From positions 1 to 64,000 of the IMG/VR virus record IMGVR_UViG_3300032007_000023: a stretch of 64,000 bases of DNA, one strand, 5' to 3'. Shown here piece after piece: positions 1 to 51,600 of the stretch. The translations under genes and the position numbers were made by a program. Source of the stretch: a virus. Lineage: Duplodnaviria > Caudoviricetes. Below the pieces are notes generated by a model, which did no database searches, was not told where the DNA came from, and saw only the letters and a program-made list of their open reading frames with translations. Position 1 is the stretch's first letter; every line of letters starts with the position of its first letter.

Positions 1-41
1 AGTTACATATCGCAAATAAATAACATAAGGAGGAATTCTAA

Positions 42-803
42 ATGAATATTTTAAGCATTGTTAGAATTACGACTGTTGTTGGTTTATCGGCGATAAAGCT
101 TATAAGTACTGCGTTGAAAGTTAAAGAAGCAAAACAGCAGGGTCTGATCAACCCAATCTTTGCTAATAACAACAACAGCACTCCTTATATGACTCAGCAG
201 CCTATGATGAATAACGGTTATAATTCACAATCCATGCAGGCTCCTCAACAGCCCACATGGTCAGAAAGCAGAAGATTTATGAACACAAACACACAGCCTG
301 TATATAATAATCAGGCACAGTATCAGCAGGCTCCTATGCTGTCTAATTATGATACACAGTCCAGAAGATACACTTCTCAGCCTACGTATAATCCTACAAC
401 TTATATACCGTCTAATTGGCAGAGTAATAATTATCGTCCTATAGGACCGACAGTTGCTCAGTATAATCATCCTGAGATGATGCCAATAAATAATTATGAC
501 TCATTGGCAGGATGGTGTAATAGGAATGTACAGAGGCCGATTCAGCAATCTGTTGATTGGAGATATCAATCACAGAATCAAGAATTGAAATGGTGTGACA
601 AATCATATGGTCAAATGATGGAAGAACGACGGATGCAATCTCAGCCACCGCCGGTAAGACATCGAGCGTCTCCAATGTTTAATTGGAACAGTCCATGGTT
701 GAAATATGATTATGCACAAGAGCAACAAAATTCTGGAGTTGTTGCAATGTTCTCTAAAGACGATGGTACCCCATTATATGGACCCGCATTAAGTGCGGTA
801 TAA
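42..803 (+). CDS. Q/N/Y/P-rich low-complexity (prion-like) protein with hydrophobic N-terminus
   Basis: AAGGAGG SD; 253 aa dominated by Q,N,Y,P,M,S; two SRR motifs (nt 267-275, 360-368). Confidence 0.8.
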   Translation: MNILSIVRITTVVGLSAIKLISTALKVKEAKQQGLINPIFANNNNSTPYMTQQPMMNNGYNSQSMQAPQQPTWSESRRFMNTNTQPVYNNQAQYQQAPMLSNYDTQSRRYTSQPTYNPTTYIPSNWQSNNYRPIGPTVAQYNHPEMMPINNYDSLAGWCNRNVQRPIQQSVDWRYQSQNQELKWCDKSYGQMMEERRMQSQPPPVRHRASPMFNWNSPWLKYDYAQEQQNSGVVAMFSKDDGTPLYGPALSAV

Positions 804-920
804 TAAAAAATAGGAGGTGAGAACCGATATGTACTCAAATCGTAGGGGTGTATCAAATGATCCTTAGAAAGGGACATATTGATATCAAGTAAACTCAATA
901 ACGAAAAGGAGGATTTTCAA

Positions 921-1313
921 ATGGAAGTAAAAGCAACAGATCTTGATGCTATCTTCAATGGTGCTGGTAGTCTTATTAATACTACTCAGAATGTCACCAA
1001 TGCAATAGCACAAGGAATTGGTGAGGTAAAGGGTATCATGGATAACTCAAGAAGATCCATGGGACCGATGCAGCCTCAGCAGTACCAGTATCAGCAGCCC
1101 ATAACATATGGATACGGATATGGTGATAATAGCTATAATGGTTATCCTGGTTTCTCAGGAATGTCTGGTTTCGGTAGCAGTTATCCACAGACCCAGATGA
1201 ATATGGGTTATCCAGGTTTCACAAATCAGGCTTATGGTAATATGGGTGGATATACTCCGAATAACAGTAATCCGTTTTCAACACCCGGCCCCCAGGGAGG
1301 TGCTTGGTACTAA
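921..1313 (+). CDS. G/Y/Q/N-rich low-complexity protein
   Basis: ATG at 921 after AAGGAGG (better than 879); amphipathic N-terminus, DNSRR, then GY/GF-rich tail. Confidence 0.8.
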   Translation: MEVKATDLDAIFNGAGSLINTTQNVTNAIAQGIGEVKGIMDNSRRSMGPMQPQQYQYQQPITYGYGYGDNSYNGYPGFSGMSGFGSSYPQTQMNMGYPGFTNQAYGNMGGYTPNNSNPFSTPGPQGGAWY

Positions 1314-1666
1314 TGAAATTTCAGGATTTCTGTTTAAAGGTTGCGACCGAAGGAGATTTCTCACAGATGCCTGCGATGCACTGTAAGGTACCGGAGAAAT
1401 ATGAGGTTGCAACAAATGTAATGGTTGATATGATGAAGAACAAACGTGACGGTTTTGATCGTATCAATGTACCATTCGTTGAGATGTGTTTCGATAATAA
1501 TGATTATGAAAAACTTCTCGAAGAGAAACTTCCTGATGGTGAGATTGATGACGCAATTATCATCAGACTCTCTGAAGGAATTTTCAATGAACAACCCGCT
1601 GCACTTGATGTAAACCAGGCTGCAATAATAAAAGTTCTGGCTACTTACATCTGTATACAAAATTAA
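1313..1666 (+). CDS. hypothetical protein
   Basis: ATG overlaps upstream TAA, GGGAGG SD. Confidence 0.7.
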   Translation: MKFQDFCLKVATEGDFSQMPAMHCKVPEKYEVATNVMVDMMKNKRDGFDRINVPFVEMCFDNNDYEKLLEEKLPDGEIDDAIIIRLSEGIFNEQPAALDVNQAAIIKVLATYICIQN

Positions 1667-1685
1667 TTAATAGGAGGAATTATCC

Positions 1686-2333
1686 ATGGCAACAACTACT
1701 ATCAACAACAAGGCTGGTATCCAGCCTATCCCCACAGACAGATACGTTATCACATCTTCTGATGTTGTAAAGTATCTCCAGGATCAGCTTACTTTCGGTG
1801 TAGCAGCTGACTTCACACGTTGGGTTGGTGTATCTCCCGACCTTTCATACGTAAGAATGAGAGTTGTTCTTGCTCCGAGTGATATCGTTGCTGATACCGG
1901 TTCTAAGGATTATGTCGACAGAGTCCTCGCTGCTAACGCTGCAGGTATCATGTTTAAGGACACAGCTATCAATGCTCTCAAGCCTTTCATGTATCCTGAG
2001 AATGTTGCAGAAGTTCGTAAAAACATCGAGGATGTCAACAGACTCTATCAGCTTGGTGTATTCGATGACCGTCTCAATGAGATCATTGCATTCTCTAAGC
2101 TCAACTACTGCAGAGAAGCAAACGTATTCAGAATCTTCCTCCGTCCTGAGAGAATCATTGCTGATATGCTTGCTGATCCTAATACCGGTAAGATCGATGG
2201 CGATATGAGCATCCTTGCTGTTCAGGGTACTGCTTCCGAGACAATTCGTTGGGAAGTAGCTGTAACAAGAAACAAGAATGCTTTCACAAACAATCAGCTT
2301 ATGTCTGTTGACGCAATCTTCAGTCGTACTTGA
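1686..2333 (+). CDS. hypothetical protein
   Basis: AGGAGG SD, 215 aa, followed by a hairpin. Confidence 0.8.
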   Translation: MATTTINNKAGIQPIPTDRYVITSSDVVKYLQDQLTFGVAADFTRWVGVSPDLSYVRMRVVLAPSDIVADTGSKDYVDRVLAANAAGIMFKDTAINALKPFMYPENVAEVRKNIEDVNRLYQLGVFDDRLNEIIAFSKLNYCREANVFRIFLRPERIIADMLADPNTGKIDGDMSILAVQGTASETIRWEVAVTRNKNAFTNNQLMSVDAIFSRT

Positions 2334-2355
2334 TAACATCGACCAAAGTGAATAC

Positions 2356-2377
2356 ATGCGGGGAATATTCCCCGCAT
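2356..2377. terminator. perfect 22-bp palindrome, terminator-like
   Basis: ATGCGGGGAATATTCCCCGCAT. Confidence 0.7.
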
Positions 2378-2403
2378 AACATCACTTTGTTCAGGAGGTA
2401 TTT

Positions 2404-3495
2404 ATGATTTACGAAATAAATCAAATGATAGATTATCTCGATGAGTTCTTTAAAGGAAGTCAGAAAGAAACTATCGTCGGTGGTATTGCGGGAACACAGA
2501 TTGAAAAGTTTGTCCTTGATTCAGCATTACAAACAACCACATTCAACAAGATACTCGTTGTGAATGGTTGTCAGGACTATATAGGTATCATGAAGAAACC
2601 TATGCAGAATGTTGTATTCTGGGGAGACTTATTTATGGAGGTCATTGTTGATCCATTGATACCGATCGATCCATGGAAACCCAGAATATTCAATCCACGG
2701 GAAGAGTATGTTAAACGTATTAATACACAAATGATAGCTGCATATGATATCATAGTTGTTCTTAATACACATCTCGTTCCATATGATATGTTGAAAGCAA
2801 TCTCAGAGAACTTCGGTGGAAAGATTGTTTACGTAACAGATCCTTTGGATGTAACTGGTTGTGATGGAATAATGCATATGGGTAGTATTAAAGAAATGCC
2901 TGTTGTCGTTGATCATCTTGAAAAAGTATCACCAATGATCGCATTAGCCAGATCTACTGTTGGATTTGAGTCTCGTGCTGTTGATTACAAGGTCAAAGGT
3001 ACATTAACAGAAACCAATAAAATAGGTAAACGTACTATCGGCAAAATAGACGATAAACAGTACATTACCAATGATTGGGGTTTATATAAAGAAGTCACAA
3101 AACGTCAGGAAGACACACCTTTCAGGAAAAACCAGAAGGTTATTGTTAATGAAGACATAGTTGATGTAATGTACGAGATGGGTCAACGTCGTGCGACACT
3201 TGTAAAGGGAAGCATGCTTACAATAGAGAATGCGACATCGAATCCGTTGATGAGATTAAGGTTATATAACTCGAAAACTATCTATGCTGCTGATGTGACT
3301 TATATGAGCGGAACCATGAAAACAAAAGGCTCTGTATCAGTTATCCCAGGAAACATCATGTACTTGGATGACGTCTTCCCATATCATAGGTATAATCATA
3401 CCGTTGCAGTGCTCGGTTATAAATTAGGAAAGAGATATATGTATTCTCTTCTTAAGAACTCAAATAATGTAACGATTGTGAATCGTTTTAAATAA
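2404..3495 (+). CDS. degenerate Dda/RecD-like (SF1B) helicase-fold protein
   Basis: IVGGIAGTQIE (Walker A position, no GKT), DIIVVLNTHLV (Walker B position, no DE), KIVYVTDP (motif III position). Confidence 0.45.
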   Translation: MIYEINQMIDYLDEFFKGSQKETIVGGIAGTQIEKFVLDSALQTTTFNKILVVNGCQDYIGIMKKPMQNVVFWGDLFMEVIVDPLIPIDPWKPRIFNPREEYVKRINTQMIAAYDIIVVLNTHLVPYDMLKAISENFGGKIVYVTDPLDVTGCDGIMHMGSIKEMPVVVDHLEKVSPMIALARSTVGFESRAVDYKVKGTLTETNKIGKRTIGKIDDKQYITNDWGLYKEVTKRQEDTPFRKNQKVIVNEDIVDVMYEMGQRRATLVKGSMLTIENATSNPLMRLRLYNSKTIYAADVTYMSGTMKTKGSVSVIPGNIMYLDDVFPYHRYNHTVAVLGYKLGKRYMYSLLKNSNNVTIVNRFK

Positions 3496-3497
3496 AT

Positions 3498-4163
3498 ATG
3501 AAAGAGGCGATGTTTACGTTTGGATATAAGATAAAACTGATCAAGAATGCGGATCTTAAAGAATATGAATTATTCGAAAAGGCAGTATTTGCAATCCATC
3601 GTCAGACAGATGATTTTGGTCAGTGGTTATTTGACGGATTTTCTCTGAACGAAAACACCGTTCATCAACTTGCGTTAGACATTGAGGGTCTTCATACATT
3701 TATAGATGTATACTTCAATAACAAATACTCATCACCATCAAGCACCATGATGATGTTTCAAAAGATCGATGTAATTCGGAAAACAGCAGGTCAATTAGTT
3801 GATATAGTATCAGAAGTTTCTAAGATGGACAAAGTCAAAGAACAAGCCGAATCAGCGGCTGAAGAGGAAAACGAATACTTTGATAAAGACGAATTCAAAA
3901 AGACCTATGATAAAGCTATGAATATGGCTATTGCACAAGCTCAAAGATTAACAATGCGACTGCTGGGTGCTTTAAAAAGTATACACCTTGTCATTGAGAG
4001 TGATTTAATCAAACTCATACTCGGTGTTGATATAATGGAAGAGTATAAGAAAAGATGCAAAAGACTTCCGAAGAATAAGGATCTTTCGACAGACTTTCAT
4101 GTACACTTCAAAGCGGTATCTAAGGATGACCGTAGATTCTTAGAAAAGGAGAAAAATAAATGA
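3498..4163 (+). CDS. hypothetical protein
   Basis: 221-aa ORF packed into the operon. Confidence 0.75.
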   Translation: MKEAMFTFGYKIKLIKNADLKEYELFEKAVFAIHRQTDDFGQWLFDGFSLNENTVHQLALDIEGLHTFIDVYFNNKYSSPSSTMMMFQKIDVIRKTAGQLVDIVSEVSKMDKVKEQAESAAEEENEYFDKDEFKKTYDKAMNMAIAQAQRLTMRLLGALKSIHLVIESDLIKLILGVDIMEEYKKRCKRLPKNKDLSTDFHVHFKAVSKDDRRFLEKEKNK

Positions 4164-5914
4164 ACGATGAAACAGAGCTCATGATGGCTGGGTATGAAAA
4201 AGTTTATGACTATACCCAGTACTCTCATCTGAATCATATCAATGTCATTCCTGAAGAGGACTTCAAGCGTCTTGTAAGAGATTCATTTAAGATTCTTGCT
4301 GATAACCTCAGAAGAACTTATGGTCCGTATGGTTCACAACTTATTCTCAGTCAGCAGTCTCAGACTATGACAACGAAAGATGGTTTCAATGCATTTGAAG
4401 CTATGGGATTCTCTCACACATATAAGAGAATAGTATATCTTGCTATCCAGAATATCATCAATCGTGTAAACCGCAATGTCGGAGATGGTACAACATCATG
4501 TATCTTACTCGCTGAGAAAATCTTTAATAATCTTAACGAGGTTATTAAAACACCTGATGACAAGAGACTCTTCCTCAAGGTCATAGATAGCATCGAGAGA
4601 AACTTCCAGGATCAGTCTATCATAGACAAGGATGTTGAATCTGGATATGTCAAGAAACTTGATAAAGTATCTATAGAAAACATCATTGCTATGGCTGCTA
4701 ACTATGACTACAATCTTACAAATGTAATTCTTACTGCTCTCGATCCTCAGTACGATGAAAACGGATATGTTGTAAGTGTAAGAAATGTTGTTCCTAAAGA
4801 AGACGTATCTTTATCAGCAGAATCAAATGCGATATATGAAACAACATTCCTTCCAGGTGATTATCGCGCACCGGTTCATATTCCAAATATTGAAGATCTT
4901 GTTGAACTTTCAAAGAGAAGAGATATGCAGGTTGTTATATATGATCACGCATTCAATTCAGTAGATTGGACAGGACTTCGTAAGAACTGGGATGGTACTG
5001 ATATACTTATCATTGCTCGTGCATTCTCAAACAAGTTCGTTCAAGAAGATCTCTATTCATACATGAAGGAGAGACACATGCTCAAGCAGCTTGGTAAAGC
5101 AGCTGATGAAAAGACTCATCTTTATCTTTGTGAGATGAAGGGTGACAGCGTTCAGAATGAACTCAAGGATCTTGCTGAGATTATCGGTACAAAGGTTCGT
5201 GGAATGTATGACGGTGATGTCAACTTCAATGATGTTCCCGTTGTAAATTTCCAAGTATTCCAACATGACTGTCTCTGTATCTTTGACGTAAAAGACAGAG
5301 ATCATTCAGAATACATTGAGCGACTCAATATTGAATATAAAGCAGATGGATCAAATTCATATGTTAAATTCAAGCAGCTTAATAAGCGTATTAAGAGTAT
5401 CAATCTTGGCAAGGATGCGCTTCTCACTGTTAAGTGTGGTACTGAACTTGAAGCAAAACTCATTACTGACAAGATCGTTGACTGTATCTCGATAGTTAAC
5501 TCTGCAATTGAGAGTGGTATTATTCCTAATATACTCAATTACGCATACTATCGTTTATGGCCTACAACACAGGAAGAAATCGAAAGTGATCTTGCGGTAA
5601 AGATATATGCGGCTATCAGAGACTCTGTTACGGAACTCTTCAAAGACATCTATGAATCTAAGTACGGTGAAAAGTATGATGTCAAGAAGTTTGAAGGAAC
5701 AAGAACTCATTTCTATTCACAGAATGATCAGTCATATGATGTTGTGGAAGACAAGTTCGTTGACATGATAAAAAGACCGACTTCAACACAGTATGATCTT
5801 GAAGTAGTTGTAGCAGCTCTGTCAATCGTTAAATATCTCCTTTCAGGCGGTGCTCTTATATTTGATGCTCATCTTCAGAAGAACGTAAATGATGAGGGTC
5901 GTTACATAAGATAA
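4160..5914 (+). CDS. groEL: phage chaperonin (GroEL/TCP-1 family)
   Basis: TYGPYG, TTKDG, VGDGTTS motifs; 584 aa. Confidence 0.9.
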   Translation: MNDETELMMAGYEKVYDYTQYSHLNHINVIPEEDFKRLVRDSFKILADNLRRTYGPYGSQLILSQQSQTMTTKDGFNAFEAMGFSHTYKRIVYLAIQNIINRVNRNVGDGTTSCILLAEKIFNNLNEVIKTPDDKRLFLKVIDSIERNFQDQSIIDKDVESGYVKKLDKVSIENIIAMAANYDYNLTNVILTALDPQYDENGYVVSVRNVVPKEDVSLSAESNAIYETTFLPGDYRAPVHIPNIEDLVELSKRRDMQVVIYDHAFNSVDWTGLRKNWDGTDILIIARAFSNKFVQEDLYSYMKERHMLKQLGKAADEKTHLYLCEMKGDSVQNELKDLAEIIGTKVRGMYDGDVNFNDVPVVNFQVFQHDCLCIFDVKDRDHSEYIERLNIEYKADGSNSYVKFKQLNKRIKSINLGKDALLTVKCGTELEAKLITDKIVDCISIVNSAIESGIIPNILNYAYYRLWPTTQEEIESDLAVKIYAAIRDSVTELFKDIYESKYGEKYDVKKFEGTRTHFYSQNDQSYDVVEDKFVDMIKRPTSTQYDLEVVVAALSIVKYLLSGGALIFDAHLQKNVNDEGRYIR

Positions 5915-5924
5915 GTGTTTATGG

Positions 5925-5946
5925 GTTGGGGCAATATTGCCCCAAC
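5925..5946. terminator. perfect 22-bp palindrome, terminator-like
   Basis: GTTGGGGCAATATTGCCCCAAC right after the chaperonin stop. Confidence 0.7.
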
Positions 5947-6011
5947 TCTAAAACAATTTTGTCTTACAACAATTTGGTACTGTTCAAAAATAATGAAAGG
6001 ACTGACGAGTT

Positions 6012-7508
6012 GTGAAGACCTTAAGAAACAATTTATACAAGGATATGGCTTCTGTGTTATGTTCATCAAAAGGCGAATTAAAATCCTCTCAAACAATCGT
6101 CTTATTTTCACGAGCAGTATCGGTTTATCCGTCAAAATCGATATACTGTCTCGTTGTACATAGAATATTGAGCTTTCTTGAAAAGAATGTCAATAACATT
6201 GATCTCATGGTTGAGGTTATGAAAGATGAAGGAGAAGATAACGAAATAATTGAAAGTATCTTATTCTTGAAAAATAATCCCACTATAACTACGCAAGCTG
6301 AATGTTTGAGACTCTGTAATCTGTTGGCAGATTATGTAAAGTGGGCAGGGGTATTAAAAGTAAAAGACTCTTTCATCAAAACTCTGGATATCATTGATGA
6401 TGACGATGAACCGGAGGATCTCAAATCACATGTTGATCATGTGTATAATGTTGCTCAGGAAATTGTTAAGGCATATGAGTCTGCAAATATAACAGCAGTA
6501 GCTCATACATTTGATTCTGCAGATGTGGATGCAATGAAAATTGTTGTAGCTGATGCTAAAGATGCTCGTGCTCCTGATAAGTGTATTATCACTGGTATCA
6601 GGGGTCTTAATAACCTTCTTTCTCCAGGATATCTGTCTGGATGTTTATACATCTACGCAGCTCTTCCTGGTAACTATAAATCTGGTATTCTGTTAAAGTC
6701 CCATGTAGATACGCTCAAGTATAATGAGCATATCAAGAATACTACAAATGGAAAGACACCAATATCTATGTATATCTCTATGGAGAATACTATGGCTCAA
6801 ACCATACGTAGATTATGGGGTATATTGTTCCCGACTGCAGATATGTCAATGTTCTCTGTTGATGAAATCACCGAGATGATTAACAACGAGCTTACTGCTA
6901 AGGGAATGAGATCTGTTATTCTTTATTACGGATATCGTGAAAAGTCCACTAAGGATCTTGAAACAATTATCCGTTCATATAATAATGACAACAATGAGGT
7001 TGTGGCTGTATTCCTCGATTACATCAAGCGTATTAGACCTGGTCGTACAGATTTAGCAGTAACATCTTCAGAGAAGTCAGAGCTTCATGCTATAATGAAT
7101 GAACTTAAGTCTATATGTGCAGAATTCAATATTCCGATCATCTCAGGACATCAGCTCAATAGAGAAGCAGCACGTCAGGTTGATGACGTTGTTAAGAATG
7201 GTGGTTATAACAAGACTGATCAAGCAATGGGTAGAAGTAATATATCTGTTGCATGGGAGGTTATGGAGGTTGCTGATTGGATGTGTTTAATGAATATTGA
7301 GAATAATGGCGAAACAAAATCACTTATGCTCAAAGCGGTAAAGCAACGTGATCTCGATCAGAACACAGATAATTCAATCACAGCTATCAGACACCCATTC
7401 TTATCACCTCAGTCGTTTGCTTTGAAAGATGACATCATGGAGAATGTATCTATATCTATCCCGATATACTTCGGCGTTCAGAAGTTGAATTATATGGCAT
7501 CCGTATAA
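6012..7508 (+). CDS. dnaB: DnaB-like (SF4) replicative helicase
   Basis: ALPGNYKS (H1), YISMEN (H1a), FLDYI (H2), HQLNRE (H3). Confidence 0.85.
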   Translation: MKTLRNNLYKDMASVLCSSKGELKSSQTIVLFSRAVSVYPSKSIYCLVVHRILSFLEKNVNNIDLMVEVMKDEGEDNEIIESILFLKNNPTITTQAECLRLCNLLADYVKWAGVLKVKDSFIKTLDIIDDDDEPEDLKSHVDHVYNVAQEIVKAYESANITAVAHTFDSADVDAMKIVVADAKDARAPDKCIITGIRGLNNLLSPGYLSGCLYIYAALPGNYKSGILLKSHVDTLKYNEHIKNTTNGKTPISMYISMENTMAQTIRRLWGILFPTADMSMFSVDEITEMINNELTAKGMRSVILYYGYREKSTKDLETIIRSYNNDNNEVVAVFLDYIKRIRPGRTDLAVTSSEKSELHAIMNELKSICAEFNIPIISGHQLNREAARQVDDVVKNGGYNKTDQAMGRSNISVAWEVMEVADWMCLMNIENNGETKSLMLKAVKQRDLDQNTDNSITAIRHPFLSPQSFALKDDIMENVSISIPIYFGVQKLNYMASV

Positions 7509-7520
7509 ATTATAATTATG

Positions 7521-7533
7521 GACATATATAATT
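7521..7533 (+). promoter_or_regulatory. class-1 (putative early) promoter motif
   Basis: GACATATATAATT, identical at 23085 and near-identical at 42374(-), 45626, 56062. Confidence 0.55.
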
Positions 7534-7597
7534 TTGGTGGAAAAGATACATCTATGTACTCTTCCAAAGAATCACATTTCGAAAAGGAGGAAATGCA

Positions 7598-8230
7598 ATG
7601 AACGTTCTTGTTCAGCAGTATCAGCAGAGAGTTCTCACTCCGGAAGAACCGGTTGATTACTCTAACATTGTAATGCAGAGTTATCCACCTCAGGCCTTAC
7701 AGCAGGAACCCTTCATAGGTTTCAAGGTTCTGTGTACAGATACTCAGGCATTCACTTACAATCCAGGTGATCGTATTCGTTATATCGATGCGAATCTTGG
7801 ATTCCTCAGAGGCAAGGGAGTTATAATCAGAGAAACCAATAAGAACAAACCTGATGGTTTCTGGGTTATCTCATTACCAGTACCTCGTTCACAGGTTAAC
7901 ACGGCTCTCAATAATCTCTTTGATGTACTTGCATCATTCGAGCAGTATTTCGGTATTGTAAGAGATGGATTATTTGAGATTAACGTATCAGGAAGATGTC
8001 ATGTAACAGAAGTTGAAAGATGCTTCTCGTCACTGTCAATTCCTCAGCGTTATATGAGTAATCTCATACCGTCAAACAACATGCTCTGTTCTATGGGTCA
8101 CATTCAGCGTATCAATGATAACTTCATGTGTCTCAGAACAAGATGGGATCTCTCAAGATCCAACACACCTCAGGCACACTTCGAAGATCTCACTGTGTTG
8201 TCTCAGTTGATAGCTTCGATGTATCATTAA
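7598..8230 (+). CDS. hypothetical protein with Q-rich N-terminus
   Basis: AAGGAGG SD; 210 aa. Confidence 0.8.
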   Translation: MNVLVQQYQQRVLTPEEPVDYSNIVMQSYPPQALQQEPFIGFKVLCTDTQAFTYNPGDRIRYIDANLGFLRGKGVIIRETNKNKPDGFWVISLPVPRSQVNTALNNLFDVLASFEQYFGIVRDGLFEINVSGRCHVTEVERCFSSLSIPQRYMSNLIPSNNMLCSMGHIQRINDNFMCLRTRWDLSRSNTPQAHFEDLTVLSQLIASMYH

Positions 8231-8256
8231 AATAATCATTTAAGGAGGAACTTAAA

Positions 8257-8994
8257 ATGAGTACTTACAATCCCGATGCACCAGTAGAAAACAGCGGCGG
8301 CTTCTTACAGCACACATACCAGGCTCAGGACAATAACATGTTCTATTGGAATGGTAATAATGTAGGAGGTTTCAATCCTGGTATGGGTTATAATGACGGA
8401 TCAAGAAGAAACGTTATGAACCCGGTAAATCCTAACTGTGGTGCACCCAATCCTTTCACACAGTTCGGTCAGGCACAGCCTCAGTCAATTCCTGAGTCTA
8501 TGGTTCAGCCGTTCGGTTCATATCCTCCTTCTACACCTTATACTGTTTCTACAAATAGTTTTGGTCTCAACTCAATGGTTGAAAGTAGAAGAAATACTCC
8601 TCCCACTCAGGCTGCTCCTCAGAACAATCCTTGGGCTCAGCCCCAGGCACAGCAGCCTCAGATGGCTCCTCAGCAGAATCCGTTCCAGTTCAACCAGCCT
8701 TGCTGTTATGATCCTAACATGACACCTGGTTTCAGAGTTGATATGAATACAGCTGCTCTCTATGGAAATAATCAGTTCGGTTTCGATAAGCATAATTCAT
8801 GGGATAACTATTATCACCAGAATCGTACTATCGATATGCCTGTTATCAATTGGCAGCAGCAGACTCAGGCAATGGCACCTCAGGGTTATGCAGCTTGGTC
8901 ACAGCCCCAGGCACAGTATCCTGTAAATCAGCTTAAGACATCCAATCAGAATTGGAAGGACATAGCTGAAAGAAACTGGTCTGCAAATTTATAA
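8257..8994 (+). CDS. Q/N/P-rich low-complexity (prion-like) protein
   Basis: AAGGAGG SD; two SRR motifs (8401-8409, 8584-8592); NPF/NPW motifs. Confidence 0.85.
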   Translation: MSTYNPDAPVENSGGFLQHTYQAQDNNMFYWNGNNVGGFNPGMGYNDGSRRNVMNPVNPNCGAPNPFTQFGQAQPQSIPESMVQPFGSYPPSTPYTVSTNSFGLNSMVESRRNTPPTQAAPQNNPWAQPQAQQPQMAPQQNPFQFNQPCCYDPNMTPGFRVDMNTAALYGNNQFGFDKHNSWDNYYHQNRTIDMPVINWQQQTQAMAPQGYAAWSQPQAQYPVNQLKTSNQNWKDIAERNWSANL

Positions 8995-9012
8995 TAATAA
9001 AAGGAGATCGCA

Positions 9013-9894
9013 ATGTCAGAATCGGTAATAACAAACGATGTCATTGACTATCGTCGTAATTTCCGTTCGAGATTGAATGCTCTTCCGTTGGAGTTCAAAT
9101 GTGAAATCGGTGAAATTCCTCTTCAAAAAGGAATGAGACCATCTTCTCGTAAAGAGAAGGCGATAGAACTCTTAAACAAATATCATATCGATTATACAGA
9201 AATCGGTACTGGAACAAATCGTTTCATTGTAAAGTATGACGGCTACGCTCTCAAGATCGCTCTTGATCATGAGGGCGTTGCTGATAATATGCAGGAATTC
9301 GCAATATGTGATTCGCTTATGCCGCATGTGGCGTATGCACATGAAATCAGTAAAGGAGGCCACCTGTTGGTGGCCTCTTACTGTCCTGCTTTTACTACTC
9401 ATTCAGAAATGTGGTCTCATAATGGATCCATACGTGAGATACTAACTGAATGGAGTAAAAGATTTCTGTTAGGAGATGTCGGTATAACACAACACAATTA
9501 TGCAAATTGGGGATTAGCTCCGGGTGGTCGACCTGTATGTATTGATTATGCATATATATTCCCGGCATCACTTGATATGTTTAAATGTATATGTGGAAAC
9601 CGATCTATGACATTTGCAAACAGTAGTTTCTCAACTTATAAGTGTACTAAATGTGGAAAGACTTATGAGGATAGAGAACTAAGAGCAAAGATATCTCATG
9701 AGGAAAGAATGAGATTGTTCAATAATGTAAAGGGTATCGAGATGAGAGAAGAATATGAATCACATCCCGTTGATCCGAAATATATCAAAGTAAATACCAA
9801 TCCTGATGCTCCGAATCCGTATGATGTTGCTATGAATGCACATGATCTTGCAAGCGGAAATCCAACATCGAATTGGTATGGAAATTTCTATTAA
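9013..9894 (+). CDS. protein-kinase-like protein with C-terminal Zn ribbon
   Basis: IGTGTNR G-loop, ALKIA lysine, NMQE glutamate, GDVGITQHNYANWG catalytic-loop-like, CIDYA (DFG-like), then CxC...CxxC. Confidence 0.7.
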   Translation: MSESVITNDVIDYRRNFRSRLNALPLEFKCEIGEIPLQKGMRPSSRKEKAIELLNKYHIDYTEIGTGTNRFIVKYDGYALKIALDHEGVADNMQEFAICDSLMPHVAYAHEISKGGHLLVASYCPAFTTHSEMWSHNGSIREILTEWSKRFLLGDVGITQHNYANWGLAPGGRPVCIDYAYIFPASLDMFKCICGNRSMTFANSSFSTYKCTKCGKTYEDRELRAKISHEERMRLFNNVKGIEMREEYESHPVDPKYIKVNTNPDAPNPYDVAMNAHDLASGNPTSNWYGNFY

Positions 9895-9907
9895 GGAGGA
9901 AATGTAA

Positions 9908-10756
9908 ATGAAATATTGGGAGTTGATACGAGTGGGTGGAAAGACGTCTGCACCCACTCCTGCTCCTAAAGAAGACGTTACGACATCTTTAAGAACGCTC
10001 ACTGATGAAGAAATTGCAGAGCGCAATGCAACTACTGAGAGTATTGTTAAAGACATTATAGAGGAGCAGAATCGTAAGAATGAAGAAACAAGTCAGAATG
10101 TTAAGACTATTCTTGCATTCATGGAAGAGCTCAAGAATAAAGACTGGACACCACCGGCTGAATTAGAGAATACATCTTTAAATCGGGAAGAGACCTGTGA
10201 CGTTCTTACAATGCTTCTTGACTTCCAGAAAAAGTATTTTTATACAACACCTCTTACAAGAGATCTTTCTCGTGCATTTGTATATAATATACCAAAGCCT
10301 GTATATGAAACTGCAAAGACCGCGGAAGTGAAAGGTTATCCCGATTGTCTCAATCCTCTTTACTGGTTCTTCATGACCCAACTTGGTGATCCAGAGTACA
10401 TGCTTCCGATGTTCCTTATTTCTGCAATCAATGCTATAAAAGATGATGACTATAATATCATTAAAAATCTTGCTTCTAAATACGCTGAAGAGTGTGGTAT
10501 AACAGCGCCTGTTATAGACGATGAGGCAGATGAAGAAGATTTAGAAGGTATTACTGAATATATGGAAGCCTCTACTAATCCGGATGATATCGATATCAGT
10601 TTATCTGATAACGATGAGATAATCGAAACAACCGATAATGGTTCATCTGCCACAGACATAGGATTATTTGATCCTGATGTAAATGATGAATCATTAAATA
10701 CTGAAAATGAAGAGGAGAATAATTATGAAACCGGAAATTCAGAAGAGAATGAATGA
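9908..10756 (+). CDS. hypothetical protein with acidic C-terminus
   Basis: AAGGAGG SD; 282 aa. Confidence 0.8.
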   Translation: MKYWELIRVGGKTSAPTPAPKEDVTTSLRTLTDEEIAERNATTESIVKDIIEEQNRKNEETSQNVKTILAFMEELKNKDWTPPAELENTSLNREETCDVLTMLLDFQKKYFYTTPLTRDLSRAFVYNIPKPVYETAKTAEVKGYPDCLNPLYWFFMTQLGDPEYMLPMFLISAINAIKDDDYNIIKNLASKYAEECGITAPVIDDEADEEDLEGITEYMEASTNPDDIDISLSDNDEIIETTDNGSSATDIGLFDPDVNDESLNTENEEENNYETGNSEENE

Positions 10757-11141
10757 TGCAATAGCAGCAACAACAATAATCAATCAGCTGTTTGATCTCA
10801 TTGTTGAAACATCTGAAACATCACTTGACAGAACCGCTACTTTCTCATACGGAAATCAGTGTTCTATAAATACTGATTTACTCGCCGTTAGGATCGTATG
10901 CAATGATAACATGTCCAATACGCTTTCAATAAATATCGATTATGCACCAAGCATGATCCATATTGCTGATTTCAATGTTGCTGCAACCGGAACATTCGAT
11001 GAATCATATCACAACATCCCTAAGGCATGCAGAAACACTGTCTTCAGTTATGCATCAGATATAAGTGATGCTCTTGAAGGCTTCATAAACGAGAATAATT
11101 TAAGTGATCTCAATGCAGAGGGGGATTCAATAAATGAATGA
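10725..11141 (+). CDS. hypothetical protein (paralog of next gene)
   Basis: GAGGAG SD before ATG 10725; IADFNVAATGTFDESYHNI motif. Confidence 0.7.
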   Translation: MKPEIQKRMNDAIAATTIINQLFDLIVETSETSLDRTATFSYGNQCSINTDLLAVRIVCNDNMSNTLSINIDYAPSMIHIADFNVAATGTFDESYHNIPKACRNTVFSYASDISDALEGFINENNLSDLNAEGDSINE

Positions 11142-11625
11142 TCTGATTAAAAATATTTCAGATATTTCTGTTGAAAATACAAAAAAGACACATCGACTTC
11201 TTGATGCTGTGTTATTCATTATTTCCAGCAATTTTAAAGATAGTGAAATAGCATTTAATCAGCAGAGAGCTACATTTGAAGTTGATGTTGATAATCTTCA
11301 TTGCGTCATTGTGAGAGATCTTAATAGATTCTTTGTTAATATCCGCTTCATTAATGAAGGAAATGTGATTGCTGAATGCACAACTGATATAGTTGGTGGA
11401 TTTGAGGAAACATATGGAAAGATAACAAACAAAGATATCAAGATCATGATTGCAAATCTTTTCTCTGATATTGCAAGCATTGATATTGATTATGTCATAA
11501 ACAATGAAGAATCAGAAGAAACTGTAGAAACAGTAGAATCTACCGATGATGTTATATCAATCGATACAGAGAATGTTTCAACAGAAGATACTACTGAAGA
11601 AGAAACTAATACTGAAGAAGTATAA
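11134..11625 (+). CDS. hypothetical protein with acidic tail (paralog of previous gene)
   Basis: IAECTTDIVGGFEETYGKI motif. Confidence 0.75.
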   Translation: MNDLIKNISDISVENTKKTHRLLDAVLFIISSNFKDSEIAFNQQRATFEVDVDNLHCVIVRDLNRFFVNIRFINEGNVIAECTTDIVGGFEETYGKITNKDIKIMIANLFSDIASIDIDYVINNEESEETVETVESTDDVISIDTENVSTEDTTEEETNTEEV

Positions 11626-11631
11626 TATATG

Positions 11632-11665
11632 CCGGGGCTTCACGCCCCGGTTATTATTTTTATTT
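11632..11665 (+). terminator. intrinsic terminator
   Basis: CCGGGGC-TTCAC-GCCCCGG plus T-rich tract. Confidence 0.75.
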
Positions 11666-11732: not shown

Positions 11733-12242
11733 ATGAATAACCAGAAAGGCGAAAAAATTGATGAGGTAATGAAACAGGCATCGAGTACTATTAATCTCAT
11801 TGATAAGGTGGTAAATGGAGATAAGGGTCGCTTCAATAGCGATATATCTGCACCAAAGGAAGAAGACTTTAAAGACAAACCCAAAGATATACCATTCGAA
11901 GAACCGTCATATTATTACGGTAACCCATGGAATCCTTCAACGAATGCATGGAATCCTTCAATGAGTGCTTGTTTTTCAGATCCATCAGCACCATATAATG
12001 CTATGTATCAGAAACCTCTCAGCGGTGCTTTTTGTCCTATTCCATCGGAAACATTTAAAGCAAGAGATGAAAGGTTACACAAGATCAAGGATATTCTCAC
12101 TGTAACTGAATTTGAGATGCTGGATATTCATCATATTCTTGATATGGATTATGATAAGTTTACCAGATATATTTCTATCTTGAATAAGCTTATTGAAAAT
12201 GGAGTAATTTCTAAAGACGATGAAACTAATCATATAGAATAA
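11733..12242 (+). CDS. hypothetical protein
   Basis: AAGGAGG SD; contains WNPS twice. Confidence 0.75.
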   Translation: MNNQKGEKIDEVMKQASSTINLIDKVVNGDKGRFNSDISAPKEEDFKDKPKDIPFEEPSYYYGNPWNPSTNAWNPSMSACFSDPSAPYNAMYQKPLSGAFCPIPSETFKARDERLHKIKDILTVTEFEMLDIHHILDMDYDKFTRYISILNKLIENGVISKDDETNHIE

Positions 12243-23948: not shown

Positions 23949-25061
23949 ATGAACAATCTCATTATAGGACTCGGTAATACTGGAACGAATATCGTTAAAG
24001 CAGCAGCCGGTTCTGCACTTCTTGATCAGGTAACAATGTATTCTATTGATAGTGTTACATCATCTATTGATCTTTCAACTATTGACAAGATTAAGGTGAT
24101 ACCTATTATCTCTGATGAGAAGAGTGGTTCTGGACGTAACAGAGAACGTGGTAAAGCAATGTATGAATTCCATGAGTCTCAGGGCGCTTTCGAAGAGATG
24201 TATAAGACTGCAAAGAATTCAAAATCGCCTGTATTGGTAATAACATCGTCTGCAGGTGGTACTGGTTCTGGTGCAACTGTTCCGTTATGCAAGGCTCTTA
24301 TCGAAAAGGATATTCAGGTAATTCCGATTATCGTGTGTCCTAATAAGAAAGATCCGGCTGCATTCCATCTCAATACATCTGATTTGTTTATCGAACTCGG
24401 TGAACTTGGTGTTGAAACATATGCTGTATTTGAAAATAGACGTGGTGATGCAGACTATACACCTGTCAATCAGGAAATCGTAAATCTCATCGAAGTAATC
24501 TTTGGTAAGAAATACGATAGCACAGATCTCGATTCAATCGATGATTCTGACCTTGATGTTATTCTTAACACTCCTGGTAGACTTATCGTTGTTCAGGCAG
24601 AAGCAGGTTCTATTCCAGCACTTCAGAAAGAAATTACAAGAAAGGTGTTCTCTGGATTTCAGCCTGTATGGAAACCTGAAGATGTAGGAGCAAATACTCT
24701 CATGACTGCATTTGCATTGAAGTCAATGTTTGCTGATGAAGATTTCAGAACTGTGTTTGATGGTATTCGTGAAAGAATAGATCCTTCATCTTCTGAAGAC
24801 AGTACTGTATATGATGAGTATCGTAACATCGTTAAAGATGATAACAACGGTATGGCTACAGCATCTCTTATTATCGCAGGACTTCCTCGTTCTGAAATAA
24901 AAGAGATAGAAAGCAACTACAAAGAAGCAAGTGGTCTTGGAGAAGGTATTAAGAGATCTACAAGACCTTCATTCATGAACAGAAAGAAAGCCTCTGTAAT
25001 TACTGATACTACGGTATCTGGTGATAAGAGTGAGGTACTCAACAAATTCAAATGGCACTAA
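23949..25061 (+). CDS. phuZ: tubulin/FtsZ-family GTPase (PhuZ/TubZ-like)
   Basis: IIGLGNTGTNI, GSGRNRERG, SAGGTGSG signature; ATG 23949 after AAAGGAGGT. Confidence 0.9.
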   Translation: MNNLIIGLGNTGTNIVKAAAGSALLDQVTMYSIDSVTSSIDLSTIDKIKVIPIISDEKSGSGRNRERGKAMYEFHESQGAFEEMYKTAKNSKSPVLVITSSAGGTGSGATVPLCKALIEKDIQVIPIIVCPNKKDPAAFHLNTSDLFIELGELGVETYAVFENRRGDADYTPVNQEIVNLIEVIFGKKYDSTDLDSIDDSDLDVILNTPGRLIVVQAEAGSIPALQKEITRKVFSGFQPVWKPEDVGANTLMTAFALKSMFADEDFRTVFDGIRERIDPSSSEDSTVYDEYRNIVKDDNNGMATASLIIAGLPRSEIKEIESNYKEASGLGEGIKRSTRPSFMNRKKASVITDTTVSGDKSEVLNKFKWH

Positions 25062-43687: not shown

Positions 43688-45553
43688 CTAATCCATCTCG
43701 ATTAAGTTTATCTGAGTATTGCTGAGCCTTCGAGATACCTGGAAAAGCAACGATGTTCCTATATCAGTGATCGGTATAAAGTCCTCATGTCTACCGCATG
43801 AAGGGCAGTTTATATTCTCAACACGGAATGAAATAGGAGAAACTGTTTCTCTTGTTTTCTCGATCAGCTTGAGAAGTATACCGGAATCATATGAATCAAG
43901 AGACTTTGTGATTATCTCTTCGATCTGTTCCCAGTTAGTGAAACGATATTCCTTGTTCTTTCCTGTCTTAGGATCAGGACGAACGATTGTCATTGCAGAA
44001 ACGAACAATGCGTTTGCAGAAAGATAATCGAACTGAGCCATTGATACATCATTCGGATCAAGTTCTGTCATGTTTCCGTCAGGACGGAATCTCTTATAAA
44101 GGTCATTGATAAGAGGAAGCTTCTTTGTAACGAAATCGTATGCAGAAGGTTCATTAAGCTCTGCAATGATTCCAGTGTGAGGAAGCTTGAAACGTCTTCT
44201 ACGACCATTTACCTTTTCCCAGATCTTAACCGCATCAGGACCGACAGATGCGTCATAAGAAGGAACATACCAGTCAGGTACATGCTCTTCATCAATATGA
44301 AGAATGCTGCGAGGATGATAATTGATCTTGATCTGCTTCTTACAGTTAGGATTTCCACATGTGATAGAGAGTGTCTCTTCATCATCAGCTGTAGCAACGA
44401 GAAGACCCCACATAAGAAGTTCACGATCCTGATACTTTGTCTTCTTCATGAAGTCTTCAAGATCCTTGAATTCTCCGATAGAAGGACTCTTAAGGTGTTC
44501 ATAGATTACAGACCACTTCTTGAGTTCGTTATCAGAACCATTCTGTGATGCAGGTGCTGTGAGCTTGATAAAGTCAAACCAGTTGATGGATCTCATTACA
44601 CAACGATATCCTGACAGAGGAAGTGTTATAGGCGTATCATTTATACCAGAATCATAGACACTGATGATACCTTCCTGATCTGAGTTCTCAACGATAGTTG
44701 TTGAAAGCAGCTCATCTTCAGTGACTTCCTTAACGAAGATATTTACTTCATTGGATTCAACTGTTTCAGGAATAATAGATTCGTCAACCTTAACAGTTAC
44801 ATTTGCACCCTTCTCAACATTAATATTGATCTTAGGTGTTTCCTGTTTCACATTGTTTGTTATAGTGGTTTCGGGAACAGTATTTGTGTTGTTTGCTGCA
44901 GGAGCCTCTGTATCAACAACAACACCATTCTGAATATTATGAATAGCCAGAGTTCCGTTAGGCATTACCCAGTTCCTAAGAATTGTTTCTTCGAACTCCC
45001 TGGTGATCTTTTCACCATTCTTGTGATAGATATCAATGAGTTCACCCATGACAGCCATCTTTCCAAGAGTACCAAGCTTAGGATCAGGTAATTCATTGAT
45101 ACCACCGGAGATAAGCTTATACTTAGCAACAACTCTGTTTACCATAGCTGATACAATATTGAGTTTATCAGACTGATATGATACAGCTGTATCATTATAC
45201 TTCATATCATGTTCATCGGGTGGCATGAAAGGTGTTGCAGCTTTCTTGATCTCCTTCTGTCTACGTAATTCTTCACCAGCAGCAATACGAGCATCCTTAT
45301 CATGTGCTTCCTCAGCAGCGATCTCATCATCAAGATCGTTATCACCATAGATATCCTCATCAGGAATCATAGGAGGAGCAACTTCAACAGGTTCTATAGG
45401 TGCCGGTTCATCAGACGATTCATTGAAAGTAATAGGCTCAACTTCTTCTTCGATTACACTGGGCTTGTCTTCAGGAATGGGAGTTCCATCCTTAGCAGCC
45501 TTAGTACGATTCAGAAGTCTTTCCAATGCATCATCATTTTTATTATTGGCCAT
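43688..45553 (-). CDS. baseplate hub assembly-like protein (T4 gp26/gp51-like C-half) with acidic N-extension
   Basis: PITLPLSG, ITCGNPNC, FKLPHTG, NCPSCG. Confidence 0.5.
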   Translation of the reverse strand: MANNKNDDALERLLNRTKAAKDGTPIPEDKPSVIEEEVEPITFNESSDEPAPIEPVEVAPPMIPDEDIYGDNDLDDEIAAEEAHDKDARIAAGEELRRQKEIKKAATPFMPPDEHDMKYNDTAVSYQSDKLNIVSAMVNRVVAKYKLISGGINELPDPKLGTLGKMAVMGELIDIYHKNGEKITREFEETILRNWVMPNGTLAIHNIQNGVVVDTEAPAANNTNTVPETTITNNVKQETPKININVEKGANVTVKVDESIIPETVESNEVNIFVKEVTEDELLSTTIVENSDQEGIISVYDSGINDTPITLPLSGYRCVMRSINWFDFIKLTAPASQNGSDNELKKWSVIYEHLKSPSIGEFKDLEDFMKKTKYQDRELLMWGLLVATADDEETLSITCGNPNCKKQIKINYHPRSILHIDEEHVPDWYVPSYDASVGPDAVKIWEKVNGRRRRFKLPHTGIIAELNEPSAYDFVTKKLPLINDLYKRFRPDGNMTELDPNDVSMAQFDYLSANALFVSAMTIVRPDPKTGKNKEYRFTNWEQIEEIITKSLDSYDSGILLKLIEKTRETVSPISFRVENINCPSCGRHEDFIPITDIGTSLLFQVSRRLSNTQINLIEMD

Positions 45554-48631: not shown

Positions 48632-51600
48632 TTATTCAGAGTCTGTACGTCTCTGTACGTTTACGATGATCGGAACTCTGAGTATGAGACCACGGAATGT
48701 AACGTTGCAGTAGCAAACTACGATCTCACCACCATCGAGAGGATTGATGTCTCTCTGGAATGTGATATCAAGAGCCTGTACAAGATTACCTACCCAGTTT
48801 GTGAACAGGTTATCAACGTCATCCTTAAGAGTCTTGAGAACGCCGTCATCATTATACTCAAGCAGATAAGAATCGATCTTGTTCTGGAGGAGATATACGA
48901 GCTGAGAAAGTGTTCTCATGTTGTTCTCCTGGATCAGATCTGAAGTATCGCCTTCTCTGTAGAGTGTGCGCTGTGACTTTCTCTGGAGGTTTCCATTAAC
49001 ATCCATGATCCAAGCGTTACCACCTGAATTGTAGAGAAGTTCTCTCTCTTCCCAGTCAGTAGTATCGATATCCGGGAAGAATGAGATATACTGATCAGGA
49101 GCGATGTTAGTGTACTTACCTGTGAAAGGCTTATTGACTGTAAAGCGCTTCATGTGTCCGATCATGTTATCGACGAGCGCCTTAGTATATGTGTATGCAA
49201 TGCCATCAGCAGATGATACATAACCACCGATATCCCAAGAAGCATTCGGGTTAGAGAACTTCTTAGAGAATGTCTGGTTAATAAGCATAGCTGTATTAGC
49301 ATCAGTAACACCAGAGTCAAGATGGAGTGAGAGACCAGAACCAGGTCCGATAGGTCTCTTATCCTCAGGAATACCCTGATAGCAACGACGGATCATGAGA
49401 TCATACATTGCCTGCTTAACGTCTATATCAGTAAAGTCCTTGATATTTGAAATCAAGTCATTGTTAAGAAGGATTGCCTCCTTCTCATCGTCTGTATAGA
49501 TTGTTGAAGCATTTATGATATCGATTGGCTTGTAAACCATGTAAGGAAGAATGGTCTGACCAACGATAGTATTCGTACCACCGTCGAAGAGGTACTTAGC
49601 AGGACATCTTGTGGTTGAGTTGATACGAGGATCTTTCTCACCCTTATATGCCTGAACGAGGAGTTCGGAATAACGCCACTTGAATTCGATATCAGAGATA
49701 TCATCATCGAAGAAGCCAGCATAACCGTTCTCGATCGGAATACCACCCATCTCAGTATTCGGGTTTACACCGTAATTCTGTGAGTAGTAGTTAGCAGGAA
49801 TCTCAGTAGGATCCATACCATAACGGTAGATAGAACCCTGAGTACCAGCGATAGTATAACGCTTGATCATTGTAGGATCAGCATTAGCAGGATTGATCTC
49901 AACAGCTATATCTGATTCAGTGATCTTGATTGTAAGACCAGATGCAGTACCATTGGTATATACATCAGTAACTGTAGTACCCCAACCATCAGCACTTGTG
50001 ATGAGATTATATTCATATCCGTTTTCAGTATAAACTGTTTTGATAGTGTCACCCCAACCGGTTGCTGATTTAACGAGAGTGTATACATAAGGATCGCCTG
50101 CAGTATCAGTACCAGTTCTTGTGTAATACCTGTTCTCTTCGAAAGGAGGTACATAAACAGGTTCTGTCTGAGTACCAGTATTCTCAATTGTTATACCTTC
50201 GCTGTATGCCTTGGAACGAGAATAGAATGTATTCACAGCAAATTCCGGTTCATAGTGAGGAGCAGCTTCAGGATCTGTCTCAGTGTTTACGATCTCAACA
50301 TGAATATACTTATCATATGGAGTTGTTGCATATTCACCGGGAACGATCTTAGTTGATGAAGCATCTGAAGATTCGAAAGCAACTTCAACATTCTTCATAT
50401 CCTTCTTATCCCCTGTATCCGGAATAGGAGTTACAGCAGTAACTTTGAATGAAGTTTCGGGATAAGCAGCAAGAGTAACGATATCATTTACTGCATAAGG
50501 ACCTGTACTCTTAGGAGCTGCAGCAGTATCAGTAGAAGCACCGCCGTTTATCTTCCATGTCACATCGAAACCTGTTTCACTAGAGCTGTCATCAGAATCC
50601 TGATAGAGCATGAGATCGTATGAAGTTCCAACGATTGGCTTAGTAACAGCGAATGATGTAGGACAGATACCTACATAGAATGGTGTATTAGTCTGAGTAA
50701 CTACCTCTGTTCTATCTTCAACACCCTTGTAGCCGTTTACATATACCTTACCACAATTTGTGGTGTCTGTTGTGTCGATATTGATATATGTTGTACCAGG
50801 AGTCTTGTAGAACTCATCAGTTTCAGATGTAGCAAAAGAAGTGATCTTAGATGAAGGATATGCAAGCATTGGATAGATTTCTTTCTTGGTTGTATATACA
50901 ACAGAATTATCAGAATCTATTGTTGGAGTACCAGTAGTTGAAGCATCCTTATCAGCATAAGCAATCTTCGCAATGAAGAAATTGTTGAGCTTATTAACAG
51001 GATCAACTGATACCTTATTTTCAACAAGAATGAAATCAGGCTGGTATTCAATGTATGTCACATCTCCATCTTTCCTTGTGGACTTCTTACGAGGAGCAAG
51101 TTTACCACGATTGATGAGATCTGAAACCTGAGCAGTTACCTTTTCCAGAGTCTTTCCTTCAGTAGAAATATATGCACGGAACATATCCAGAATAGGCTTA
51201 GTTCCATCTGTTCCACCAGTCTTAATCTGAGAAATCGGTATAGAAGTGATAGCACCAGTATACTGATTGATGGTTGTAATGAGAGTAAGTGCCATTGTTG
51301 CTGTGTTAGTAACAAAGAGGTCACCTACGTGATACGGGTTATCAGGATTTGAAACACCGTATGTCTTTGAATCGAGATAAGCATTCAATGCGTCCGGCTT
51401 TTCGATGTATTCAGCAGCTGATTCATCAGTACCGAGGAATACCTTGATTCTGTTTGCAGTATCAAGCTGAGGAATATCAAGATCGAACATGTCAACCTGG
51501 AAGTATGGGAGCTTAACATCAGAGTCACCATTGTAAATATAACGACCATAAATAGGATCGAAGATATTAACATTCATGGTTACATATACATCCTTAACCC

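Follow-up and report, generated by a model that had tools for sequence, protein, structure and literature searches.

An S-R-R element shared by three low-complexity proteins of an uncultivated jumbo-phage clade changes in step across lineages and is a candidate docking motif

Disordered proteins bound through short motifs are central to the organisation of eukaryotic cells and are almost undescribed in phages. Two described phage proteins come closest. Gp27 of SPO1 contains a disordered part and drives condensates (PMC13401047), and ChmC of the nucleus-forming phages is reported to be partly disordered (10.1101/2023.09.22.559000); both are proposed to concentrate machinery during infection. 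These proteins possess folded nucleic-acid- or RNA-polymerase-binding modules, and they have no sequence relation to the proteins considered here. We consider a stretch of 64,000 nucleotides (nt), hereafter the window, which is the first 64 kb of the 165,419-bp IMG/VR record IMGVR_UViG_3300032007_000023 (CheckV completeness estimate 61%). At its left end, three low-complexity proteins, called P1, P2 and P3 (Table 1), carry five copies of the tripeptide Ser-Arg-Arg (S-R-R), and a kinase-like gene follows P3. The evolutionary signal of this motif system is unusually clear.

We begin with the motif as it stands in the window. A first-pass annotation of this DNA had placed three open reading frames (ORFs), five motifs and Ser codons that differ between the copies, and we find them exactly as placed: the Ser codons are, in order, AGC, TCC, TCA, TCA and AGT, and every motif Arg is encoded by AGA. 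When the greedy ORF set of the whole record (152 ORFs, 52,164 amino acids (aa)) is taken as the base, S-R-R occurs 8 times against 5.0 expected, and five of the eight copies fall in P1-P3, whose 628 aa amount to 1.2% of the proteome. When each protein is shuffled at constant composition, the motif stands above expectation, with P = 1.5e-3 for P1, 1.2e-3 for P2 and 5e-5 for P3, and the concentration of S-R-R in P1-P3 is repeated in two related genomes. Two occurrences elsewhere were set aside. The V-S-R-R-L near the C-terminus of a 621-aa protein (43688-45553, minus strand) is conserved in all the relatives checked, a motif-less genome included, and the Q-S-R-R in a 1290-aa protein beside the tail tube gene (48632-52504, minus strand) is kept in some relatives only; neither seems related to the motif of P1-P3.

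The next question is whether the motif is conserved in the protein families at large. A search of 1.84 billion proteins with a profile of three P3 orthologues yields 67 representative clusters, full length (210-265 aa) in nearly every case. In the alignment of 52 representatives, which share 28-59% identity with the window P3, the mean column identity is 25%, and S49, R50 and R51 of the first motif and R111 and R112 of the second are at least 90% conserved; the conservation at the protein level that had been read from the differing codons is thus borne out by homologues. The consensus of the first P3 motif is D-S-R-R-N, and that of the second is [LF]-N-[SA]-[LM]-[VI]-[DE]-S-R-R-N, followed by N-P-W-A. 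The homologues of P2 form two clades, with and without D-[NI]-S-R-R-[NS] right after the N-terminal helix, and each of the 12 further homologues of P1 contains at least two copies of x-S-R-R-[FYN], with the consensus [QE]-S-R-R-[FY]-M. Position profiles of the motif were built from 114 P3, 24 P2 and 38 P1 instances. Ser precedes the Arg pair in 114 of 130 P3 instances, with Thr in three exceptions. The motif is under strong purifying selection within otherwise fast-drifting sequence. We find no match in Pfam, PHROGs or NCBIfam for P1, P2, P3, for their neighbours A, B, C, D and G, or for any of the 52 members of the P3 family, no usable match in the ESM Atlas for P3 or B, and no published description of the P1-P3 families or of their motif.

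The behaviour of the motif between lineages is the central observation of this study. The sample consists of 23 syntenic phage lineages, which preserve the gene orders G-P3-kinase and P2-A-B-C as far as each locus extends. The motif is of the D-S-R-R-N type in 16 lineages, where it is present in P2 and P3 of nearly all and in P1 only of the window's own subclade and of L034. One clade (L018, L027, L028 and L029) has instead [AP]-R-R-x-D, with the Ser replaced and the flanks changed in P1, P2 and P3 alike; in every copy of the three proteins the Ser position is taken by Ala, Pro or Val. P3 of P0053 reads G-L-R-N in both of its copies. The motif is absent from P1, P2 and P3 of L020/L021, although P3 retains one degenerate E-S-R-A-N, and it is absent from P2 and P3 of L035. 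The loss in L035 is independent of that in L020/L021, because its sister L031 keeps the motif. The copies in different proteins therefore change or vanish together, as they should if a common reader recognises them all, and chance or composition can hardly account for this.

While it is possible to ask whether the recurrence is itself an accident, since the motif was chosen after inspection and its Arg codons are all the one that the genome favours, the shuffle probabilities multiply across three proteins, the pattern returns in two more genomes, and about 50 distant homologues keep the motif almost unchanged. Conservation has already refuted this explanation, and we give it practically no weight. 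As an observation in its own right, P2 (1749-2222) and P3 (9238-9912) of L035 share a new segment, P-P-T-x-E-x-F-N-x-M-S-x-G, with a local alignment z of 4.6 and a score reached in 1 of 300 shuffles. This segment may be a replacement, one motif having been exchanged for another. The N-terminal segment common to P2 and P3 of L020/L021 was rejected as not significant (z 1.5-2.2).

The reading that we favour, with a probability of about one half, is that the [DE]-S-R-R-N element docks one shared partner in a membrane-anchored, multivalent scaffold. The Arg pair would be the core of a short linear docking motif, [DE]-S-R-R-N/aromatic, present in one to three copies per protein and read by one common partner. 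P1 would sit at the membrane through its N-terminal anchor with its disordered part toward the cytoplasm, and P1, P2 and P3 together would make up the scaffold.

How do the proteins themselves fit this picture? P1-P3 are the compositional outliers of the genome, with Q+N+G+Y+P at 0.41-0.53 of all residues against about 0.23 typically. Their Q+N content is 0.19-0.27 overall, with best 60-aa windows of 0.38, 0.23 and 0.33, their charged residues amount to 8-14% and their aromatic residues to 10-14%. Arg is scarce in two of them, as first noted: P2 has two, both in its motif, and P3 has seven, four of them in motifs. P3 is essentially disordered according to its AlphaFold2 model from the 52-sequence alignment (mean predicted local distance difference test, pLDDT, 52.8; predicted template modelling score, pTM, 0.19); only two short helices are predicted, and both motif regions lie in 10-residue blocks with a mean pLDDT of 46-50. 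The claim that the three proteins are otherwise unalignable stands for P1 and P3, whose best profile-profile match is a mini-motif, P-x-x-N-W-N, at a non-significant E-value of 0.45. It needs a small correction for P3 and P2, whose profiles align at the motif only (16 columns, E 0.018).

This composition also suits an explanation with no specific receptor, in which the two Arg would be the sole cationic stickers in nearly uncharged chains rich in Tyr, Phe and Trp, for self-association via Arg-aromatic contacts or for nucleic-acid binding. Arg-Tyr contacts govern the phase separation of the FUS family, and the aromatic and charge contents of P1-P3, together with the confinement of Arg to the motif in P2, would allow similar contacts. 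Phage proteins that drive condensates are also known, SPO1 Gp27 being an example (PMC13401047). Generic stickers, however, would require neither flanks fixed as [DE] at -1 and N at +1 nor the joint switch of flanks to x-D in one clade, and they would tolerate Lys or dispersed Arg, whereas the motif is position-specific and nearly invariant; we consider this explanation unlikely.

Of the terminal hydrophobic or amphipathic segments reported at first pass, that of P1 is borne out as an N-terminal hydrophobic anchor at aa 3-25 (nt 48-116), about 22 residues long, in which small residues abound. No positive charge precedes this segment, and Arg or Lys follows it in most lineages. Because of this charge pattern and the positive-inside rule, the anchor is predicted to be N-out/C-in, which would leave the long Q/N/P-rich part in the cytoplasm. 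P1 further contains a conserved C-terminal G-V-V-x-M-F..D-G-T-P-L (nt 735-785). In P2 a helix-like N-terminal segment (nt 939-1040) is followed directly by D-N-S-R-R-S and then by a G/Y-rich tail with T-Y-G-Y-G-Y and G-Y-P-G-F-T-N..Y-G (nt 1206-1238). P3 strings together conserved mini-motifs such as N-N-P-W-A (nt 8623-8637) and has an amphipathic helix at its C-terminus (about nt 8950-8982). A second mini-motif, P-[MI]-[FVI]-N-W-[NQ], is common to P1, where it reads P-M-F-N-W-N (nt 672-689), and to P3, where M-P-V-I-N-W occupies nt 8836-8853. No column of the P3 family other than its Trp is fully invariant, and the motif-less lineages keep this Trp too.

The placement of the motifs in these layouts would also agree with proteolytic processing at the Arg pair, cutting P1-P3 and, for example, freeing the P2 helix from the G/Y-rich tail. 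The pair is invariant and the residue before it is variable, the P2 site lies exactly at the junction of helix and low-complexity tail, and the two P3 sites divide three mini-motif blocks. Searches of Pfam, PHROGs and NCBIfam, however, found no trypsin-like or dibasic-specific protease near the module, and a binding epitope would account at least as well for the acidic residue and the Asn conserved at -1 and +1, which leaves processing a slim chance. The topology of P1 bears on yet another explanation, that the motif imitates the twin-arginine translocation (Tat) signal and so serves export or decoys the host Tat receptor. The n-region consensus of Tat signals is S/T-R-R-x-F-L-K, and S-R-R-N-[MIVF] and S-R-R-F-M resemble it in their S-R-R-x-hydrophobic core. 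The motifs of P1-P3 differ from Tat signal peptides in that they are internal (aa 43-130), repeated (one to three per protein) and preceded by an acidic residue, and what follows them is Q/N/P-rich sequence in place of a hydrophobic h-region; moreover, the predicted polarity of P1 puts its motif-bearing part in the cytoplasm. Tat mimicry is very unlikely.

We turn to the neighbour of P3. The kinase-like ORF begins 18 nt after P3, as the first-pass annotation had it, and in all 23 lineages the two genes lie side by side in the same orientation. The AlphaFold2 model of its product has a pLDDT of 85.9. A Foldseek search of the PDB returns RIO2 (E 6.3e-6, probability 1.0) followed by many eukaryotic-type protein kinases, and a search of BFVD returns phage protein kinases and two longer Myoviridae proteins with a query template-modelling score (TMq) of 0.58-0.60. 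The protein has 296 clusters of homologues. The residues invariant in 28 homologues are G65-x-G-x-x-R70, K81, E95, D155, N165, D178 and C192/C194/C211/C214; by their sequence pattern these would include a Gly-rich loop, the beta3 Lys, the alphaC Glu, the catalytic Asp and Asn and the metal-binding Asp. The catalytic loop, G-D-V-G-x-x-x-x-N-x-x-N, is longer than the canonical H-R-D-x-x-x-x-N. The curated kinase hidden Markov models (HMMs) in Pfam and NCBIfam (Pkinase, RIO1, ABC1) do not match the protein, and PDB profile searches with it and with B, G and C gave nothing below E 0.09. An atypical kinase is plausible.

With such a neighbour it is tempting to read the motif as a phosphorylation site, and the first-pass annotation proposed this as one of two roles for S-R-R, the other being docking: the kinase-like protein would phosphorylate the S-R-R Ser and thereby toggle the assembly of the low-complexity proteins. 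The strict adjacency, the kinase-like fold with its invariant K81/E95/D155/N165/D178 and the prevalence of Ser, or occasionally Thr, before the Arg pair all speak for it. The comparison between lineages corrects this reading. The kinase-like gene and its invariant residues are retained in the clade that has lost the Ser (L018, L027-L029), in the G-L-R lineage (P0053) and in the lineages that have lost the motif (L020/L021 and L035). The protein also does not respond to the motif state: its distance ratio across the divide between S-R-R and no S-R-R is 0.84, its relative rate in L035 versus L031 is 1.01, and 1 of 96 conserved columns has changed in both motif-less lineages. Arg at +1 and +2 of the acceptor is not known as a common pattern for basophilic kinases. 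Phosphorylation of the motif Ser by this neighbour is accordingly improbable. Because of the strict adjacency, our results suggest that P3 and the kinase-like protein work together, though probably not via the motif Ser. A complex prediction for the kinase-like protein with residues 30-135 of P3 scored 0.29 against a mark of 0.32, and is evidence neither way.

If the element docks a shared partner, which protein could that be? Relative to housekeeping genes, the divergence across the L020/L021 divide is 1.67 for B, 1.21 for A and 1.15 for G, and about 1 for all others. A genome-wide relative-rate test of L035 versus its sister L031, which covered 109 orthogroups and used three outgroups, ranks B, G and C highest in acceleration among full-length proteins, and all three belong to the module. 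Convergent replacements at conserved columns in both motif-less lineages number 4 of 39 in C, 3 of 44 in G and 0 of 26 in B. These tests suggest, weakly, that the uncharacterised proteins of the module, and not the kinase, DnaB or the chaperonin, track the motif. The PhuZ-like tubulin was rejected as partner, its identity to the window protein being 57% in both motif-less L035 and L031. A search for genes lost with the motif was likewise unproductive: the four losses rechecked in the motif-less genome (with matches in at least two other genomes) were gaps in ORF calling, and tblastn found all four.

Several points weigh against the docking reading. The sample offers just two independent losses and a single switch of the motif. 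In most lineages the Ser is 100% conserved, and its substitute in three P3 sequences is Thr, a pattern that suits a modification site too. The three leads disagree, as B has no convergent column where C and G have several; the rate and column tests single out no one partner, and the partner could equally be a host protein. With these points in mind, we infer that the motif binds a partner, that this partner may be phage-encoded as B, C or G, and that the assembly would be a scaffold or a condensate. One may go further and imagine P1-P3 as a membrane-anchored, multivalent motif-receptor network, a condensate or gel, that organises replication or assembly in a widespread gut and rumen clade of PhuZ-encoding jumbo phages, with D-S-R-R-N, [AP]-R-R-x-D and the L035 motif serving as an exchangeable address code that would co-evolve with a receptor among B, C and G. 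We regard this extension as possible but doubtful.

Table 1. Positions of the low-complexity proteins, their S-R-R motifs and associated features in the window (nt; +, forward strand;., no strand).
Feature	Position	Strand	Description
P1	42..803	+	253 aa, Q/N/P/aromatic-rich
S-R-R of P1	267-275, 360-368		
P2	921..1313	+	130 aa
S-R-R of P2	1047-1055		
A	1313..1666	+	117 aa, acidic; translationally coupled to P2 in most lineages
B	1686..2333	+	215 aa; fastest-diverging full-length protein in both motif-less lineages
Hairpin between B and C	2355..2378	.	GC-rich perfect palindrome
C	2404..3495	+	363 aa; convergent replacements in both motif-less lineages
G	7598..8230	+	210 aa, directly upstream of P3; faster evolution in L035
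P3	8257..8994	+	245 aa, predicted disordered
S-R-R of P3	8401-8409, 8584-8592		
Kinase-like protein	9013..9894	+	293 aa; RIO-like/phage mini-kinase fold; C-terminal four-Cys zinc ribbon
PhuZ-like tubulin/FtsZ-family GTPase	23949..25061	+	Pfam Tubulin 36.7 bits (cut-off 33); phrog_4733 'tubulin PhuZ', E 2.2e-7

The window that holds this module has a GC content of about 36%. It encodes split RNA-polymerase beta and beta' subunits, whose nearest relatives are those of the Bacillus phages PBS1/AR9 at 27% identity, as well as a large terminase, a tail tube protein, a topoisomerase II and, by family-library search, a Cpn60-like chaperonin and a divergent DnaB. The phage was first described as PhuZ-encoding, which Pfam and PHROGs confirm (Table 1); the tubulin is 55-60% identical in relatives, one motif-less relative included. 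Among related records, those estimated to be at least 96% complete measure 231-263 kb, and two of them have terminal repeats; we put the jumbo phages of this clade at about 230-280 kb. The source is an uncultivated jumbo-phage clade, because among 50,697 GenBank phage records there is no match to nt 1-10000 (megablast) or to P3 and the kinase-like protein (tblastn). A strong AAGGAGG Shine-Dalgarno site stands ahead of nearly every gene, those of P1, P2 and P3 among them, and for this reason a Firmicutes host fits better than Parabacteroides; MBR5296985.1, a close homologue of the kinase-like protein deposited as a protein of a Parabacteroides metagenome-assembled genome, probably owes that assignment to a binning artefact. 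A chimallin shell was not identified for the window phage, and the 621-aa protein mentioned above, when checked as a nucleus-shell protein, gave a sole weak match to Listeria phage LPJP1, which is uninformative.

The module belongs to a conserved non-structural gene block with the order P1-P2-A-B-C-D-chaperonin-DnaB-G-P3-kinase. The stop codon of P2 overlaps the start of A (TAATG). Transcription-unit boundaries probably lie at the hairpin that separates B from C and at the strong bidirectional terminator (11631-11651) after the gene at 11134-11625; these two elements suggest one unit of P1-P2-A-B and another whose last genes are G-P3-kinase and three more, through 11625. Just beyond lies a fourth, partly low-complexity protein (11733-12242, 169 aa) that contains Y-Y-Y-G-N-P-W-N-P-S-T-N-A-W-N-P-S but lacks S-R-R; the N-P-W elements in it are reminiscent of N-N-P-W-A in P3.

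Other genes of the block have features of their own. Gene D (3498-4163, 221 aa) overlaps the start of the Cpn60-like chaperonin gene (4160-5914) by 4 nt (ATGA), and the same overlap is found in L018, L020, L022 and L024; the product of D may serve the phage chaperonin as a dedicated co-chaperonin or partner. The DnaB gene of the window (6012-7508) is uninterrupted. That of the relative G001 (L003:5864-8020) is split after about 420 codons by an ORF for a 258-aa HNH/NUMOD-like endonuclease, and L019 and L020/L021 have short DnaB calls or HNH genes nearby. Relatives also have a MazZ-like gene that encodes the PF18909 dGTP/dATP diphosphohydrolase N-terminal domain and lies 1-3 kb downstream of the kinase-like gene (L018:12583-13770, L020:12752-14506, L021:12207-13910 and L022:11364-11918), which hints at modified-base DNA metabolism in this clade.

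What emerges is a set of three protein families, unannotated, in a large clade of uncultivated jumbo phages. A five-residue element that is fixed by selection and changes in step in three proteins is an exact handle for finding its partner, and it could allow testing whether phages use scaffolds based on short linear motifs (SLiMs) at the membrane.

We close by comparing the locus with known systems. The product of 9013-9894 shares with RIO-type and small phage kinases the fold, the Gly loop and the invariant Lys, Glu, Asp, Asn and Asp; it differs in having no HMM match, a longer catalytic loop and a zinc ribbon in place of the C-lobe. P1 resembles the bitopic division proteins ZipA and FtsN in that a short N-terminal hydrophobic anchor leads, by way of basic residues, into a long P/Q/N-rich segment. 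It has, however, neither the FtsZ-binding domain of ZipA nor a SPOR domain, as no Pfam, PHROG or NCBIfam match was found, and the PhuZ-like tubulin does not respond to the motif state. In their Q/N/G/S/P-rich, charge-poor composition and regularly spaced aromatics (G-Y-G, F-G, N-P-W), P1-P3 recall prion-like and FUS-like low-complexity domains and the cohesive FG-nucleoporin domains, but their Q+N content is moderate (19-27%, at most 0.38 per 60 aa) and they carry distinct conserved mini-motifs, not repeats. The likeness to SLiM-receptor networks lies in conserved islands of five to six residues within drifting disordered sequence, in several copies within and across chains, and in the coordinated, lineage-specific change of the motif. 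The receptor domains of such networks have at most weak candidates here, B, C and G, and the families of P1-P3 match no Pfam, PHROG or NCBIfam model.

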